The translations under genes were made by a program, and so were the position numbers. From a phage: a DNA stretch of 64,000 nt. Location of the stretch: the sequence record NC_101837.1; one strand, written 5' to 3'. How positions within the stretch are numbered: position 1 is the stretch's first letter; each line of letters starts with the position of its first letter. Positions 37,218 through 55,452 of this stretch are shown piece by piece. The notes beneath the pieces were generated by a model that saw only the letters and a list, made by a program, of their open reading frames with translations, searched no databases and had not been told where the DNA came from.

Positions 37218-37706
37218 ATGAAACTTGATAAAAATGTTCAACGAAAAGCTTTCTTGGATATGATCGCATATTCGGAAGGCACAGATAATGGTAGACAACC
37301 TACCAAGGATCGGGGGTACGATGTCATAGTCGGAGGCAAGCTGTTCAGCGATTACAGCAAGCATCCCGGTGTTTACGTTAAGCTAAATGCTAAGCTTACC
37401 TCCTCCGCTGCTGGGCGTTACCAGGTTTTGGAGAAGTTTGCTAAACACTACATGAAACAGTTAGGATTACCAGATTTTGGCCCTGACAGTCAGGACAAGA
37501 TTGCGTTGCAACTGATCCGTGAGTGCAAGGCTCTCGCCGACATTGATGAAGGGCGTATTCATCAGGCCATTTATAAATGCCGCAGCCGCTGGGCAAGCTT
37601 CCCACCACCGCCAGGGGCTGGAAAGCTGTACAATCAGCGAGCAGAAAGTATAGACAAGATGCTGGAGATCTTTAAGAAGGCAGGTGGAGTTGTTACAGAT
37701 GAGTAA
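37218..37706 (+). CDS. endolysin, lambda R-type lytic transglycosylase
   Basis: Near-colinear similarity to lambda R as recalled (QRKAFLDMIAYSEGTDNGRQ...GYDVIVGG...AGRYQ...); GGAGAG RBS. Confidence 0.85.
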   Translation: MKLDKNVQRKAFLDMIAYSEGTDNGRQPTKDRGYDVIVGGKLFSDYSKHPGVYVKLNAKLTSSAAGRYQVLEKFAKHYMKQLGLPDFGPDSQDKIALQLIRECKALADIDEGRIHQAIYKCRSRWASFPPPPGAGKLYNQRAESIDKMLEIFKKAGGVVTDE

Positions 37707-38382
37707 CGGGATTGACTGGTGGAGTGTCTTTAGATACGATACAGGCACTGGAAGGTTGTTTTGGAAGTCCCCACCAAAAAACAAACCTCAACTGATGGGA
37801 AAGGAGGCTGGATGTACTAACATGGACGGGTACAGGGATATAATCTATCGCGGCGTGCATTACTACAGGCATAGATTGGTGTGGGAGATGCATTATGGAC
37901 CAATTCCAGAAGGGTACGAAGTTGATCACATAAAGCCACTTTTCTATTCCGATGGTGTTGCTGATGACAGGATAGAAAACCTACAACTGTTAACACCAGA
38001 AGAAAACGCAAAAAAGGCGGCAGATGACGGATGCCTGGCACGCAAGATACCTAAATCTAACACTGGACACTTGGGTGTATATTTTCATGCTAGAACTGGA
38101 AGGTATGCTGCTTTTGGTAAGGTAGGTCATTACTATAAGAAAGACCTAGGAGAATACGATACCTTAGAAGAGGCCCTTGCTGCTCAAAAGTCTTTTGAAA
38201 GTGGCACGTTTGTCAGGGAATATCGTGGACAGCCTTTAGGGAGGGATAAATCTAGAGGTGTCAGATTTGAAGCAGATAGGGGCAAATGGAAAGTAACTTT
38301 CAGAGGAAAAACGCTAGGCAGGTTTGACACCAAAGAGTCTGCTGAAGCGTGTTACGCAAAGGCTCTTGCTGAAAGATTGTAA
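37699..38382 (+). CDS. HNH homing-endonuclease-like protein with AP2-type DNA-binding repeats
   Basis: HNH core YRHRLVWEMHYGPIPEGYEVDHIKP...NLQLLTPEEN; two AP2-like segments (GVYFHARTGRYAAFG; GVRFEADRGKWKVTFRGK); alternative GTG start 37684. Confidence 0.75.
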   Translation: MSNGIDWWSVFRYDTGTGRLFWKSPPKNKPQLMGKEAGCTNMDGYRDIIYRGVHYYRHRLVWEMHYGPIPEGYEVDHIKPLFYSDGVADDRIENLQLLTPEENAKKAADDGCLARKIPKSNTGHLGVYFHARTGRYAAFGKVGHYYKKDLGEYDTLEEALAAQKSFESGTFVREYRGQPLGRDKSRGVRFEADRGKWKVTFRGKTLGRFDTKESAEACYAKALAERL

Positions 38383-38450
38383 CAGTATCATTGACATGAC
38401 CACACGGACGTGGTATTGTTACCTCATACAATGTTAGGGAGGGTTTAACC

Positions 38451-38666: not shown

Positions 38667-39131
38667 GTGGAAGACGGACGTTTAATGAAGTCTGAACGCA
38701 GGCTTATTGTGCAACTGATCCCAGAAACAGCTTGGTATAATAACCTCCGAAACGCTGTAAAGAAGAGTGAGTGGGATAAGATCCGCAAGAAGTGCTATAG
38801 AGAAGCCAACTACACCTGTGAGGTGTGCGGCGGTAAAGGCAGCAAACACCCAGTGGAGTGTCATGAACTTTACACTTTCGAAGAGGGAGTGATCCGGCTT
38901 GTCGGACTGATAGCGTTGTGCCCAGATTGTCACACATCTGTGCATCCTGGGTTAGCAAATATCCGTGGAAAGTATGCTCAGGCAGTTAGTCAGTTGGCTA
39001 AGGTGAATAAGATCACCAAGGGTATGGCAGAGGCGTATTACCGAGACTGCTTTGCAGAGTGGCGTGAGCTTAGTAAAGTTCCAGAATGGAAGACTGACTT
39101 TTCGTGGATAGAGGGTTACCTTGATGGCTAA
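38667..39131 (+). CDS. putative zinc-finger His-Me (HNH-like) nuclease
   Basis: CEVCG...HPVECHELY...CPDCH arrangement typical of HNH/zinc-ribbon nucleases. Confidence 0.4.
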   Translation: MEDGRLMKSERRLIVQLIPETAWYNNLRNAVKKSEWDKIRKKCYREANYTCEVCGGKGSKHPVECHELYTFEEGVIRLVGLIALCPDCHTSVHPGLANIRGKYAQAVSQLAKVNKITKGMAEAYYRDCFAEWRELSKVPEWKTDFSWIEGYLDG

Positions 39132-51997: not shown

Positions 51998-52854
51998 AAG
52001 TTGTAAAACGGGACGGTAGAGAAGAGTTTTATAACGGAATTAAGGTGATCAAGGCGGCAGAGTCCGCCTTACTTGAGTCTGGACATACTGAAGAAGAAGC
52101 TTACCGGATAGCTTGTGCAGTTAATGAAGTTGTTGCTAACAATCTACCAACCGACCAGTGCACGATCTCTGTAAAAAATATCCATATCCTTGTTGAAGAT
52201 GCTCTTATGGATATGGGTTTAAAATGTGCAGCCAGAGAATACATCCAGTATAGACAGACAAGAGATAATAACAGAGAGGCAGGTGGAAAACTGCTTGCAG
52301 ATATTAGTGGCTTCTTGGATCGAACTTGTGATGAATTTACAAAAGAAAACGCAAATAAGCCTACTAATCATGTACACACTCATCGCGACCTGCTTGCAGG
52401 CATCCTTAGCAAACACCTTGCATCAACACAGATCCTGCCAGACCGTGTTTCAGAAGAGCACAATAAAGGCTTCATCCATGTGCATGATCTTGACTACTTG
52501 ATCAGTCCGTTAACAAACTGTTGTTTGGTAAATTATCCAGATATGTTGGAAAACGGATTCAACATTGGCAACGCCCATGTCAGTAAGCCGAAGTCAATAG
52601 GGGTTGCAACAACAATCCTTAGTCAAATCTCTAGCGCGGTAGCTAGTGCTCAATATGGTGGTCAGACTATGAGCCATATTGATCATTATCTGGCACAGTA
52701 TGCTGAAGCAACCTATGAGAAGAACCTTAAATTTTGCCAGGAACATTGGTTGCCGGATGCTGAAACTGTTGCAATGCAAATGACAGATAAAGACGTGTTT
52801 GACAGCATGCAGACGTTGCTTTATCAGATCAACACACTAACCTCGGTAAACGGT
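51994..52854 (+). CDS. nrdD: anaerobic ribonucleoside-triphosphate reductase NrdD, exon 1
   Basis: GTG start; ATP-cone (VVKRDGREEF), conserved class III RNR segments; frame hits stop only because intron begins at 52855. Confidence 0.8.
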
Positions 52855-53111
52855 TAACAAACTGGCCGTTTTAAAACTCTGCTAACCTCAGTATGAGGGG
52901 TCAGCTGATCGCTGGCTAACGGGGAACGCTAAGGCGAAAGCTATGCCAATCCCGTGACTAGCTTCACAAGGAGTGAGGCGGTTGTAACGACTAACCTTTT
53001 GGTGTAGGGATTATGGAAGATTCCGAAACGCAGGGGTCTGATTAAGAATCACACGGTGTGATTTCAGGCAAGAGATAGTCTGGCCTTGTGGAAACATAAG
53101 GGTGGGGACCG
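52855..53111 (+). other. group I self-splicing intron (ORF-less) interrupting nrdD
   Basis: 5' exon ends in U (52854); intron ends in G (53111); internal guide GCCGUU (52865-52870) pairs with exon AACGGU including U.G; P7-like GACUAG/CUAGUC-type elements; NrdD sequence ...NTLTSVNG|QTPFITLS... continuous after removal. Confidence 0.75.
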
Positions 53112-54374
53112 CAAACCCCTTTTATCACATTAAGTTTAGGTTTGGACACTTCGGTCTTTGGTAGAATGATTACCAAAAATTACTTGAAAGTCCACAAAAT
53201 GGGTCTTGGTGAAGAACGTATCACACCTGTGTTCCCTAAAGTGCTGTTCTTCCTGGAAGAGGGTGTCAACATGAACCCTGGGGATCCTAACTATGATTTG
53301 AAACGATTAGCTCTGGAATGCTGTGCAGAACGTATCTATCCTGACTTCGTATCTGTACCACTAAATAGAAAAGTGACAGGCTCGACAGATGGCAAAGTAA
53401 CTAGCATGGGTTGCAGGAGTTTTCTTAGCAAATACAATGACTTGGAAACAGGCGAGGAGAAATACCTTGGCAGATTTAACTTAGGCGTTGTTAGCCTTAA
53501 CCTGCCAATGATTGCGGCAAAAGCTAAGACGGAAGGTGTTGATTTCTTTGCAGTTCTTGACGAATACTTGGATCTTGCATATGAGGCTCACCTTGTAAGG
53601 GTTAACCGTCTAAAAGGAACAAAGGCAGGGCAGAACCCCATCATGTGGTGTGAAGGCGCTCTTGCTCGCCTGGATCCTGAAGAGAGTATTGATAAACTCT
53701 TCTATGACGGGTACGCTTCCATCAGTATTGGGTATATTGGTGTGTATGAAACCTGTCAGATTTTGGGCAGAGAGGGTGACAAGGCTTTAGCTCTTGGAAT
53801 CCTTCAGCACATGAGAGATGCTTGTGAGCGATACAAGAAGGAAAGTAGACTAGCATTTAGCTTGTACGGCACTCCTTCTGAGAGTCTATGCTATAAAGCT
53901 GCAACCTGTCTGGATCGTGAATATCCGGAAGTGTTGAAGCACGAGCATGAATATCTCACCAACAGTTTCCATCAGCCAGTGTGGATAAATAGCTCTCCTT
54001 TTGATAAGTGGGAGTATGAGGAAGGTTTTGCTATGATCTCCTCTGGTGGCAACATTGGATACGTAGAGACACCTAACCTGAAAAACAACCTGGATGCTTT
54101 AGAGGCTCTTGTTGACTTCGGGTATAAACATATTATGTATTTTGGTATTAACCAACCTGTGGATAAATGTCTCAAGTGTGGTTTCTCTGGTGAGTTCAGT
54201 GCAACAGCTAAAGGGTTCTGCTGCCCTGCGTGCGGATGCCACGATGAACAATATATCTCAGTGATCCGAAGAGTGTCTGGATATCTTTCCAGTCCTAACT
54301 CCCGTCCTTACAATAAAGGTAAGCAAGCGGAAGTTATCGAGCGAGTTAAGCACTACGGAAGTTGTGGTTGCTGA
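53112..54374 (+). CDS. nrdD: anaerobic ribonucleoside-triphosphate reductase NrdD, exon 2
   Basis: Frame open from 53100; ITPVFPK...EEGVN..., C-terminal zinc-ribbon CLKCG...CPACG and glycyl-radical region. Confidence 0.8.
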   Translation, partial: QTPFITLSLGLDTSVFGRMITKNYLKVHKMGLGEERITPVFPKVLFFLEEGVNMNPGDPNYDLKRLALECCAERIYPDFVSVPLNRKVTGSTDGKVTSMGCRSFLSKYNDLETGEEKYLGRFNLGVVSLNLPMIAAKAKTEGVDFFAVLDEYLDLAYEAHLVRVNRLKGTKAGQNPIMWCEGALARLDPEESIDKLFYDGYASISIGYIGVYETCQILGREGDKALALGILQHMRDACERYKKESRLAFSLYGTPSESLCYKAATCLDREYPEVLKHEHEYLTNSFHQPVWINSSPFDKWEYEEGFAMISSGGNIGYVETPNLKNNLDALEALVDFGYKHIMYFGINQPVDKCLKCGFSGEFSATAKGFCCPACGCHDEQYISVIRRVSGYLSSPNSRPYNKGKQAEVIERVKHYGSCGC

Positions 54375-54438
54375 TACTTGACAAAAGCCACAAGGATGTG
54401 GCACTATACAGATGTTTAGGGAAGTTAGGAAACAAGAA

Positions 54439-55404
54439 ATGGCTAAATTATCAACAGAAGAGTTTATAGAGAAGGCGAAAATCATTCACGGTTATAAATA
54501 CGATTACACGAAAACAGTGTACGTGGATTGCTATGCGAAGGTTTGCATTACCTGCCAAATCCATGGGGATTTTATGCAAGCACCTTGTAAACACTTGCAA
54601 GGTCGTGGTTGTCCTTTTTGTGCAAAACTTTCTCGTGCTGCAAAGTGTAATAAAGGTCTTAAATTTGTAGAAAGGGCCAAAGAAATCCATGGAGATAAAT
54701 ATGACTACTCTCTCGTATACTACAAGACTTGCAAAGACAGGGTAGAAATAATCTGCAACACTTGTGGAAATCACTTTACACAGACACCTGATAACCATAT
54801 AAATTTGAAAAGAGGTTGTCCAGTTTGCAAGGGGTCAAGAATCTCACAAAGTAAAACATCACCACACGAAAAGTGGGTTGAGTCCATAAGAAGTAGAAAT
54901 CCTTATGTTGAGATATTGGAAGAAATTATTGGGTGGGATAAGAAAGTCCTGTGCTGCTGTAAAGGTTGTAGCCACACATGGTTAACCGTACCAAGCAGTC
55001 TTAAGCAGGGACATGCTTGCCCTAGATGCGCTAAAACAGGATTTTTATCACACGATAACGGAAAACTCTACATTATGGTTGATGATCCAGAAGTACCTAC
55101 ATTTATGAAAATAGGGGTCAGTCATAATGAAAGTAAGCGAAGAGACCAGATACTTAAAAGTGCACAAAGATCTAGAGCTGGTATCCGCGATCTTCACATA
55201 GTGAAAACGTTGGAAGGATCAACTGAAAACATGCTGGCTGTAGAAAAATCTATGCACAAAGCCTTCAGTAAATATAAAATAAACTTCCCTGTAAAATTTG
55301 ATGGTAGTACCGAATTCTTTAACTACAGACCTGAAGTGTTCAGTATGGTAGAATCAGCGCACAGAGAGATTTGTTGTAAACATAGGACAGGTAATAACCT
55401 GTAG
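54439..55404 (+). CDS. GIY-YIG-superfamily (T5orf172-like) nuclease with N-terminal zinc-finger repeats; putative free-standing homing endonuclease
   Basis: C-terminal GKLYIMVDDPEVPTFMKIGVSHNESKRRDQIL resembles T5orf172/MUG113 motif; N-terminal repeated IHGxKYDY...CxxC...GCPxC units; start at ATG 54439 (AGGA RBS). Confidence 0.55.
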   Translation: MAKLSTEEFIEKAKIIHGYKYDYTKTVYVDCYAKVCITCQIHGDFMQAPCKHLQGRGCPFCAKLSRAAKCNKGLKFVERAKEIHGDKYDYSLVYYKTCKDRVEIICNTCGNHFTQTPDNHINLKRGCPVCKGSRISQSKTSPHEKWVESIRSRNPYVEILEEIIGWDKKVLCCCKGCSHTWLTVPSSLKQGHACPRCAKTGFLSHDNGKLYIMVDDPEVPTFMKIGVSHNESKRRDQILKSAQRSRAGIRDLHIVKTLEGSTENMLAVEKSMHKAFSKYKINFPVKFDGSTEFFNYRPEVFSMVESAHREICCKHRTGNNL

Positions 55405-55452
55405 AGCCATATATCAACCTTTAAACATGTTATAAACTAAAGGAGGTGCAGC

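Follow-up and report, generated by a model that had tools for sequence, protein, structure and literature searches.

The intron-encoded I-HmuI of Bacillus phage SPO1 is described as a nicking enzyme. In the T4 systems, where free-standing homing endonuclease genes (HEGs; the HNH-type MobA-E and the GIY-YIG-type SegF and SegG) are inserted between conserved genes, the enzyme is expected to cut the neighbouring gene of a genome that lacks the HEG. Such T4-type genes show presence/absence polymorphism in close relatives and co-conversion of the adjacent gene, and they adjoin genes of nucleotide metabolism or replication. In the HNH-AP2 homing endonuclease family, for which a 2005 publication by Wessler is reportedly another source, an N-terminal HNH domain is followed by C-terminal AP2, and the genes lie in phages beside conserved genes and at recombination boundaries. 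Two studies cite Magnani et al. (Plant Cell, 2004) for this family (PMC5714182, PMC10448857). Jablonska et al. (2017, PMC5714182) defined group 2 of the His-Me fingers (zf-His_Me_endon/HNH_3), and the pairing of HNH_3 with AP2 is among the architectures recognised for HEGs (PMC5714182, group 2; PMC10448857). In the T4 Mob proteins the partner of HNH_3 is a zinc finger and not AP2 (PMC10448857), the HNH domains of the "IPA-HNH" genes of Vibrio phage ICP1 are too divergent for Pfam HNH_3 (Barth et al. 2023, PMC10448857), and HEGs have been reported at the boundaries of phage genetic exchange (PMC10448857).

The gene studied here lies in a window of 64,000 nucleotides from an rV5-like phage of E. 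coli (Vequintavirus) that is 99.8% identical to rV5_ev147. An earlier note had placed an HNH-AP2 gene directly against the endolysin gene, and an open reading frame of 227 aa indeed occupies exactly positions 37699-38382 of the plus strand, encoding an N-terminal beta-rich region, an HNH_3 domain, and two AP2-like repeats. Its ATG (37699-37701) falls within the final codons of the endolysin ORF and overlaps the endolysin stop (TAA, 37704-37706) by 8 nt, so that the gene begins inside its neighbour, as the note had allowed. A longer version starting from a GTG at 37684 is possible, but the ATG and the 8-nt overlap are conserved in two homologues with 80-81% identity (L017 and L018), and the GenBank CDS uses the same ATG. 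GenBank already labels the identical CDS of phage RudolfGeigy "putative homing endonuclease"; in rV5_ev147 and YN3 the same gene is entered as "hypothetical protein". A profile search matched the protein to PHROG 99, "HNH endonuclease" (E 6e-49), and NCBIfam has no model for it. A literature search brought up neither rV5_ev147 nor a description of this gene, and the window has no paralogue of it elsewhere. The stretch GGTGGAG, 8 nt 5' of the ATG (37684-37690, plus strand), resembles a Shine-Dalgarno sequence and is made by conserved Gly-Gly-Val codons of the endolysin, which suggests that translation of the HEG may be coupled to that of the endolysin. We also looked around the start for an RNA hairpin that could sequester the ribosome-binding site; the fold is no better than that of shuffled sequence (z -0.47), and we therefore claim no translational control.

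Alignment with HEG-less phages reveals an inserted segment of 687 nt (37701-38387, plus strand) that replaces the TGA stop of the endolysin gene; the alignments were read by eye and the boundaries are ambiguous by a few nt. The junctions are precise, with the last endolysin codon on one side and the -35 box of promoter P90 on the other, and the total difference in length between carriers and HEG-less phages is 699 nt. P90, the sigma-70-type promoter of the next gene (TTGACA-17-TATTGT, 38391-38419, plus strand, from a promoter scan and the rV5 annotation), is annotated in phage rV5 at 3 nt past the endolysin stop, is conserved whether or not a genome has the HEG, and marks where homology resumes to the right of the insertion. 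Among about 124 related Vequintavirus records, 10 carry the HEG; an uninterrupted endolysin-promoter junction is seen in 74 records, the type phage rV5 among them. Polymorphism at a single site with precise junctions is what a free-standing HEG is expected to produce at the endolysin-downstream junction, the comparison that the earlier note had proposed. The refuting case named in the note, a gene found here in every relative and with some conserved role other than that of a nuclease, does not hold: most close relatives, rV5 included, do without the gene, which is therefore dispensable.

The endolysin gene itself (37218-37706, plus strand) is of the lambda R type (PHROG 90, E 3e-52; 58% identity to lambda R), and protein alignment shows that it is chimeric. 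Residues 1-127 are of the rV5 type, the 5' part of the carrier gene being 99.5% identical to that of the HEG-less phage naam, and residues 128-162 are of the type that adjoins this HEG in distant phages; the gene measures 489 nt in the window and 471 nt in HEG-less phages. The replaced 3' end (37594-37698, plus strand), delimited by alignment and blastn, comprises 105 nt with 63% identity to HEG-less relatives and 15 nt of indels (two indels). In the phage collection, the linkage of this tail to the HEG is perfect: blastn matches of at least 96.7% identity come from the 10 carriers and from no HEG-less record. The tail matches the endolysins that precede the 80-81% identical HEG copies in two distant phage backbones, and at the nucleotide level it has diverged from L017 and L018 (75-76%) just as far as the HEG has (73-80%). 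The foreign 3' end is thus probably a co-conversion tract, i.e., donor DNA copied in alongside the HEG. The alignment shows a tract on the left side only; on the right, the flank is too conserved for one to be visible.

The history of the cassette differs from that of its surroundings. It is 99.9-100% identical between carriers whose flanks share 93.7-97%, and the flanks of carriers are closest to those of HEG-less relatives, not to one another: the left flank of the window is 99.0% identical to that of naam (HEG-less) and 93.7% to that of isim, a carrier with which it shares a cassette at 99.9%. The left flanks of RudolfGeigy, a carrier, and JeffSchatz, which lacks the HEG, are 99.4% identical. 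Such a mismatch, together with co-conversion, characterises HEGs as a class. The 80-81% identical homologues keep the same 8-nt overlap behind endolysins with the "FPPPPGAGKLY..." tail, and they sit in two distant, rearranged backbones, in one between an nrdA-adjacent gene and nrdD, in the other after a phosphoesterase homologue. The association of the HEG with the endolysin 3' end is hence kept across three different genome neighbourhoods. All carriers and homologues that we examined have an intact ORF of 227-231 aa, and the ORF is under purifying selection, with dN/dS of 0.08-0.2 in all informative pairwise comparisons, over synonymous divergence of up to about 1.5. IMG/VR yielded distant relatives only (30-47% identity), without informative context. 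In its insertion between conserved genes, its polymorphism among close relatives, and the co-conversion of its neighbour, the locus resembles those of the T4-type HEGs, from which it differs in adjoining an endolysin gene.

The earlier note had reported a complete HNH motif, and our searches bear this out. Pfam HNH_3 matches residues 55-104 (37861-38010, plus strand) with 52.5 bits, above the gathering cut-off of 24.8 (E 3.7e-14), a strong match that sets the protein apart from the IPA-HNH proteins of ICP1. The predicted catalytic motif D-H...N...N is intact, and its residues (D76, H77, N94, N103) are invariant or nearly so in a 17-sequence family alignment. The family profile matches I-HmuI (PDB 1U3E) over residues 12-110 (E 1e-5), the motif of I-HmuI aligning column by column with the DH...NL...N of the profile. 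The same structure is the best Foldseek match in the PDB, with a probability of 1.00 but an E-value of only 1.7e-3 and TM scores of 0.30-0.38. Single-sequence phmmer against PDB sequences gave no matches, I-HmuI and the AP2 structures being reached by the family profile only. The AlphaFold2 model of this region has strands at 74-77 and 95-98 and a helix at 100-109, the arrangement of the beta-beta-alpha-metal fold. An unusual loop of 11 residues, KPLFYSDGVAD, separates DH from DRIENL, and the block of residues 81-90 has lower model confidence (mean pLDDT 64). Like I-HmuI, the protein has an N-terminal beta region followed by HNH_3; unlike I-HmuI, to which it is about 23% identical, it is encoded by a free-standing gene and ends in two AP2-like repeats. 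Profile, motif, and predicted fold place it among the HNH_3, I-HmuI-like His-Me finger proteins, with a putative metal-dependent DNA nicking or cleavage activity.

The two AP2-type repeats that the earlier note had also read in the sequence stand on structural and profile evidence, although not on the Pfam cut-off. Against Pfam AP2 (PF00847) the full-length sequence reaches 26 bits (E 1.1e-5; cut-off 33.3), repeat 1 alone 17.1 bits (E 0.0067, within residues 112-175), and repeat 2 alone 20.6 bits (E 5.6e-4, within residues 176-227); both repeats are therefore sub-threshold by Pfam's own standard. In the AlphaFold2 model (mean pLDDT 78.5, with low-confidence inter-domain linkers) a three-strand sheet followed by a helix occurs twice, at residues 127-168 and 189-225. 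Repeat 1 (about residues 123-168; 38065-38202, plus strand) has strands at 127-130, 135-142, and 146-153 and a helix at 156-168, and repeat 2 (about residues 183-225; 38245-38373, plus strand) has strands at 189-191, 196-201, and 204-209 and a helix at 212-225. Foldseek matched the two-AP2 factor WRINKLED1 (WRI1, 7wq5; probability 1.00) and AtERF1 (1gcc; probability 0.87, rmsd 2.4 over 45 columns). The family profile matched the solved AP2 structures of WRI1 (E 9e-8), TEM1 (E 2.6e-4), and ERF096 (E 0.021), all of which cover repeat 1. Predicted structure and profile matches to solved AP2 domains thus support two C-terminal AP2-like repeats with a putative role in DNA binding. The protein shares the domain order and the setting of the HNH-AP2 family, in which most of the retrieved relatives of about 165-180 aa have one AP2 copy. 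The second copy is found in this HEG and its close homologues, and the family alignment over repeat 2 is spanned only by these and by a longer protein of 369 aa (P0011).

We consider it likely that the gene is a free-standing HEG of the HNH_3/I-HmuI-like His-Me finger group with a tandem AP2 module, spreading by homing, as the earlier note had proposed; the polymorphism, the precise insertion, the linked foreign tail, and the mismatch between cassette and flanks all point this way. Homing would take place in mixed infections with a related HEG-less phage. The HEG would be co-transcribed with the endolysin gene and its translation coupled to that of the endolysin; the enzyme would bind DNA through its N-terminal beta region and both AP2 repeats and would nick or cut close to where the endolysin 3' end meets P90. 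Our guess, from the sequence, is that the cleavage site in HEG-less genomes spans CTGGATTGA/TCATTGACAT or is close to it. The break would then be repaired with the HEG-carrying genome as template, which would bring in the HEG and flanking donor sequence, and the carrier would be protected by the splitting of the site by the insertion, by its differing endolysin tail, or by both.

The precise insertion, the linked foreign tail, and a history at odds with the flanks show that the element has really moved. General recombination, which is rampant in these mosaic genomes, could shift the cassette without nuclease action, and the HEG could be a passenger that no longer homes, its target gone or its nuclease inactive. 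The strong mosaicism all around the locus would suit such a passenger, as would the 11-residue loop in the HNH motif with its lower-confidence block. Yet a passenger is unlikely to have kept its catalytic D-H...N...N and a dN/dS of 0.08-0.2 over such synonymous divergence, to have stayed with the endolysin 3' end in three genome neighbourhoods, and to be more conserved than its flanks. Purifying selection would equally be expected of a domesticated nuclease or DNA-binding protein kept for a role useful to the phage, possibly the exclusion of co-infecting relatives, the degradation of host DNA, or an AP2-mediated regulation of P90. The position directly upstream of this promoter and the known co-option of HEG-related proteins (PMC10448857) favour domestication, which we nevertheless hold to be somewhat less likely still: the gene is dispensable, marker exclusion would be a consequence of homing-type cleavage and no true alternative, and we found no sign of a regulatory role.

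A presence/absence pattern by itself does not give the direction of the event, and distant Vequintavirinae-like phages contain close homologues; both points would be compatible with a HEG ancestral to Vequintavirus that was deleted in most lineages instead of gained by invasion. We rejected such an ancestral gene with multiple losses as highly improbable because deletion cannot turn the carrier tail into the HEG-less tail, given their 63% identity and two indels. The carrier endolysin is, moreover, chimeric, its 5' part being of the rV5 type and its 3' part foreign, and carriers are not mutual closest relatives in their flanks.

The endolysin locus of Vequintavirus looks like a hot spot for such genes, which fits the HEG reading: two other HNH genes, 30-35% identical to this one, are found next to other endolysin alleles. 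Both (bas59_0189 of EduardKellenberger, with the upstream gene of HMD-6, and gp92 of SophiaRose) are of the HNH_3 type with AP2-like C-terminal parts and abut the endolysin gene. One lies upstream of it; the other, downstream, follows an endolysin of 51% identity. Each goes with an endolysin allele of its own, and the downstream gene ends in GATTGA, the letters that close the rV5-type endolysin gene. EduardKellenberger has a murica-type endolysin whose downstream site is empty. A broader reading, possible in our view but tentative, is that the locus is a three-way battleground of unrelated HNH-AP2 HEGs, each locked to its own endolysin allele: the rV5-type 5' part with the foreign tail and this HEG, the murica/V18 allele with the upstream HEG, and the SophiaRose allele with the third, downstream HEG. 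Gene conversion driven by HEGs, and not selection on lysis, may then have diversified endolysin C-termini and exchanged them between phage species, and the tandem AP2 module could also bind at P90 and link the activity of the HEG with expression of the membrane-protein gene that follows.

Elsewhere in the genome, the GIY-YIG-like gene mentioned in the earlier note corresponds to a T5orf172/zinc-finger ORF (54412-55404) in a segment of 1033 nt that is absent from RudolfGeigy; this comparison upholds a further selfish element, although a regex search for the canonical GIY...YIG motif gave nothing convincing. The intron that the note had listed left a weak group I signal in nrdD, sub-threshold and from a focused Rfam search only; with the gathering thresholds of Rfam, no intron came up.

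For annotation, the "hypothetical protein" of rV5_ev147 and YN3 is the gene called a putative homing endonuclease in other records; past annotation, the importance of the finding is small. As a hot spot of recombination, the endolysin region of rV5-like phages is unsuited to phylogeny, and it is worth bearing in mind for therapeutic cocktails that mix such phages. The BASEL phages RudolfGeigy (Bas52), with the HEG, and JeffSchatz (Bas55), without it, have flanks that are 99.1-99.4% identical overall and are a ready-made pair for a study of homing.

The ORF at 37699–38382 (plus strand, 227 amino acids by ORF call) is probably a homing endonuclease gene, and we refer to it as the HEG. It lies directly behind the endolysin ORF (37218–37706, plus strand), which is of the lambda R type (PHROG 90, E = 3e-52; 58% identity to lambda R). 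The earlier note had placed its start inside that gene or at its stop, and it does begin inside the gene's end: its ATG (37699–37701) falls within the final endolysin codons, the two ORFs overlap by 8 nt (local sequence ...GTT GTT ACA GAT GAG TAA), and the endolysin stop codon is contained in HEG codons 2–3. These coordinates agree with the GenBank CDS of the same gene in related phages. A G-rich GGTGGAG (37684–37690, plus strand), 8 nt 5' of the ATG and encoded by endolysin Gly-Gly-Val codons, looks like a ribosome-binding site for the HEG. We looked for a regulatory RNA structure at the start codon and found none, and the GC content of the gene (44.5%) does not differ from that of the genome (43.5%).

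The complete HNH motif noted earlier is borne out by a Pfam HNH_3 match to amino acids 55–104 (52.5 bits, cut-off 24.8, E = 3.7e-14), by a match to PHROG 99, "HNH endonuclease" (E = 6e-49), and by D76, H77, N94, and N103, which show little or no variation when the protein is aligned with 16 homologues from databases. The profile of the family alignment matches the homing endonuclease I-HmuI, whose structure is solved (1u3e), at E = 1e-5, and its DH...NL...N motif aligns with the I-HmuI motif column by column. The two AP2-type repeats, also proposed in that note, are supported by fold and profile evidence, not by the Pfam threshold: Pfam AP2 gives 26 bits for the whole protein, below the cut-off of 33.3, and 17.1 bits (E = 0.0067) and 20.6 bits (E = 5.6e-4) for the repeats scored singly. 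In the AlphaFold2 model (mean pLDDT 78.5), a predicted beta-beta-alpha nuclease core comes first, and a three-strand sheet with a helix is predicted twice (amino acids 127–168 and 189–225). Foldseek searches of the PDB with this model retrieved I-HmuI, the DNA-bound two-AP2 plant factor WRINKLED1, and the GCC-box domain of AtERF1, and the family profile matches WRI1 (E = 9e-8) and TEM1 (E = 2.6e-4). In a viral structure library, 216 proteins match the model at E ≤ 0.001, the best-scoring named ones being mostly HNH or homing endonucleases. The pairing of an HNH_3 nuclease with AP2 domains is recognised as a homing-endonuclease architecture and falls in His-Me finger group 2, as does I-HmuI (PMC5714182). 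The HNH-AP2 family has been discussed with citation of Magnani et al. 2004, and HEGs are documented at the borders of regions that phages have exchanged (PMC10448857).

Escherichia phage rV5_ev147 matches the window region at 99.8% identity, and other Vequintavirus genomes match it at 93.7–98.9%. Twenty "Campylobacter phage" records (MG065644–MG065682, host given as C. jejuni) also match it; those among the listed matches are about 96–98% identical to E. coli Vequintavirus genomes, and the host label looks doubtful. Comparison of the endolysin-downstream junction across relatives, suggested in the earlier note, separates carriers from empty sites. A tblastn search of 50,697 phage records found the HEG protein at ≥96.5% identity in only 10 (rV5_ev147, rV5_ev156, rV5_ev158, rV5_ev168, nimi, RudolfGeigy, isim, two records of FV3, and YN3), the next match being below 45% identity. 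The uninterrupted junction, of the type seen in phage naam, is present in 74 records (at least 80% of its length covered). The type phage rV5 has this empty site, in which a 471-nt endolysin gene is followed after 3 nt by the annotated sigma-70 promoter of the next gene, P90.

We read the anatomy of the insertion from alignments of carriers with the HEG-less phages naam and JeffSchatz. The left flank is 96–100% identical to JeffSchatz per 100-nt window through 37593, and naam diverges slightly earlier, from about 37547. The final 105 nt of the endolysin gene (37594–37698) form a divergent tract (63% identity, indels of 9 and 6 nt). It is followed by a 687-nt segment (37701–38387), found only in carriers, which takes the place of the TGA stop. 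Homology restarts at the −35 region, TCATTGACAT, of a TTGACA-17-TATTGT promoter (38391–38419, plus strand), and the net length difference between carriers and HEG-less phages is 699 nt. At ≥96.7% identity, the divergent tail is confined to the 10 carrier records; endolysin genes of the murica/V18 group match it at 83% over 88 nt. Over 37547–37593, which encodes HQAIYK, JeffSchatz has the window sequence, its rV5-type tail starting precisely at 37594, and naam differs at about 11 positions; this pattern may reflect the parental background or be left over from a previous conversion or loss event.

The window endolysin is a chimera, with amino acids 1–127 of rV5 type (the first 183 nt are 99.5% identical to naam) and a foreign tail (amino acids 128–162) that shares 29 of 35 residues with the endolysin on contig L017 and 18 of 35 with that of naam, counted by hand in the alignment. 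In a large protein database we found two further HEG homologues, P0002 and P0003, at 80–81% identity. On their contigs (L017, L018, and L019), the homologue lies behind a 158–160-amino-acid endolysin with the same 8-nt overlap, and in each case the entire endolysin belongs to the murica/V18 type, with the tail FPPPPGAGKLY[N/D]QR...KKAGGVVVDG. Nucleotide identity to L017 and L018 is 75–76% for the tail and 73–80% for the HEG, an equal divergence that fits a single co-inherited unit. At the DNA level L017 and L018 matched no known phage; their other proteins are 39–79% identical to window proteins, in a different gene order, and in L018 the endolysin–HEG pair lies between a homologue of an nrdA-adjacent gene and nrdD. 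The window, L017, and L018 share this overlapping arrangement, so that the association of the HEG lineage with the 3' end of this endolysin family is conserved across three genome neighbourhoods. Most simply, an rV5-type genome would have received the HEG from a donor that had the other type of endolysin.

The cassette of endolysin 3' end and HEG (37561–38387) is 99.9–100% identical among the window, RudolfGeigy, isim, and rV5_ev168, while their 2-kb left flanks are only 93.7–97.0% identical. The closest left flank is that of HEG-less naam for the window (99.0%) and of HEG-less JeffSchatz for RudolfGeigy (99.4%); hence, the cassette has a history different from that of its surroundings. An ancestral gene that was repeatedly lost does not fit these incongruent flanks, nor the chimeric endolysin. 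A domesticated function is unlikely because most relatives, including rV5, lack the gene. The idea of a passive relic that is no longer active is weakened by the conserved site association and by purifying selection on the protein: no carrier examined has a disrupted ORF, and dN/dS is 0.08–0.2 in all pairwise comparisons, including pairs at dS 1.0–1.6. The precise polymorphism, the linked foreign flank, and the flank-incongruent history support a free-standing homing endonuclease beside a conserved gene, as originally suggested.

How such a gene would move can be proposed from what is established for free-standing HEGs (the Seg and Mob genes of T4) and for I-HmuI. By analogy, the protein would be made from the endolysin transcript, use its N-terminal beta region and both AP2 repeats to bind DNA, and nick or cut the genome of a co-infecting HEG-less relative near the point where the endolysin 3' end meets P90. 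Repair by recombination would then copy the HEG and adjacent donor sequence into the cut genome. The left crossover would lie in the conserved KCRSRWAS-coding stretch of the endolysin gene and the right one at the conserved downstream promoter, leaving the foreign tail as a co-conversion tract. As a guess, the target could be CTGGATT[G/A]AT..TTGACATAACCA, since this sequence, which spans the insertion point, is common to HEG-less alleles of both endolysin types and is split by the insertion.

Other HNH genes abut other endolysin alleles in Vequintavirus. HMD-6 and EduardKellenberger, of the murica/V18 group, carry a different gene of 238 amino acids upstream of the endolysin (L004 1788–2504 and L006 1427–2143). 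SophiaRose has a third one (L020 1746–2507; 253 amino acids), which occupies the same intergenic position as the HEG, downstream of an endolysin of 51% identity; its ORF terminates in GATTGA-TCATTGACAT, as the rV5-type endolysin does. The three proteins are 30–35% identical to one another. V18 (L005 821–2143) has a murica-type endolysin, but no HNH gene precedes it, and a ligase ORF longer by 39 nt continues straight into the start of the endolysin gene. A deletion may therefore have removed both the HEG and the 3' end of the ligase gene.

The earlier note had also pointed to a GIY-YIG-like gene and an intron as further selfish elements. A 330-amino-acid ORF (54412–55404, plus strand) matches T5orf172 (E = 5.5e-6) and the treble-clef zinc finger DUF4379 (E = 7e-7); it is likely the gene then called GIY-YIG-like. 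It lies in a 1033-nt segment (54408–55440) directly after nrdD that is missing from RudolfGeigy, and probably represents another homing-endonuclease-like gene, also polymorphic. The intron is a sub-threshold signal: no group I intron reached the Rfam gathering threshold in the window, and the match in nrdD (52845–53101, plus strand, within about 52209–54376) reaches 29.3 bits, where the gathering score is 50 (E = 9e-5, with 3.5 kb searched). BASEL annotates the RudolfGeigy nrdD CDS as a join of two pieces. A HEG-less intron beside a free-standing T5orf172 gene would resemble "collaborative homing" arrangements. A second HNH protein (38667–39131, plus strand; 154 amino acids, CxxC...CxxC type; PHROG 5200, E = 4.5e-72) has a weak match to the HNH region of IscB. 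It does not share the polymorphism of the HEG: all related phages examined, including rV5 (gp087), carry its gene, the one exception being V18, in which this region is disrupted. The label "homing endonuclease" in some records is probably wrong. Rfam identifies a cluster of five tRNA genes at 27583–28392 (minus strand), and six are annotated in related records.

The HEG is a typical free-standing gene of the HNH-AP2 type, whose past mobility is well supported by comparison, and it holds nothing unexpected to a specialist. It is already annotated, as a putative homing endonuclease in RudolfGeigy (bas52_0205) and a putative HNH endonuclease in FV3, nimi, and isim (hypothetical in rV5_ev147 and YN3). 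What is added here is the evidence for a chimeric endolysin, the second AP2 copy, and the view of the endolysin locus as a hot spot for multiple HEGs.
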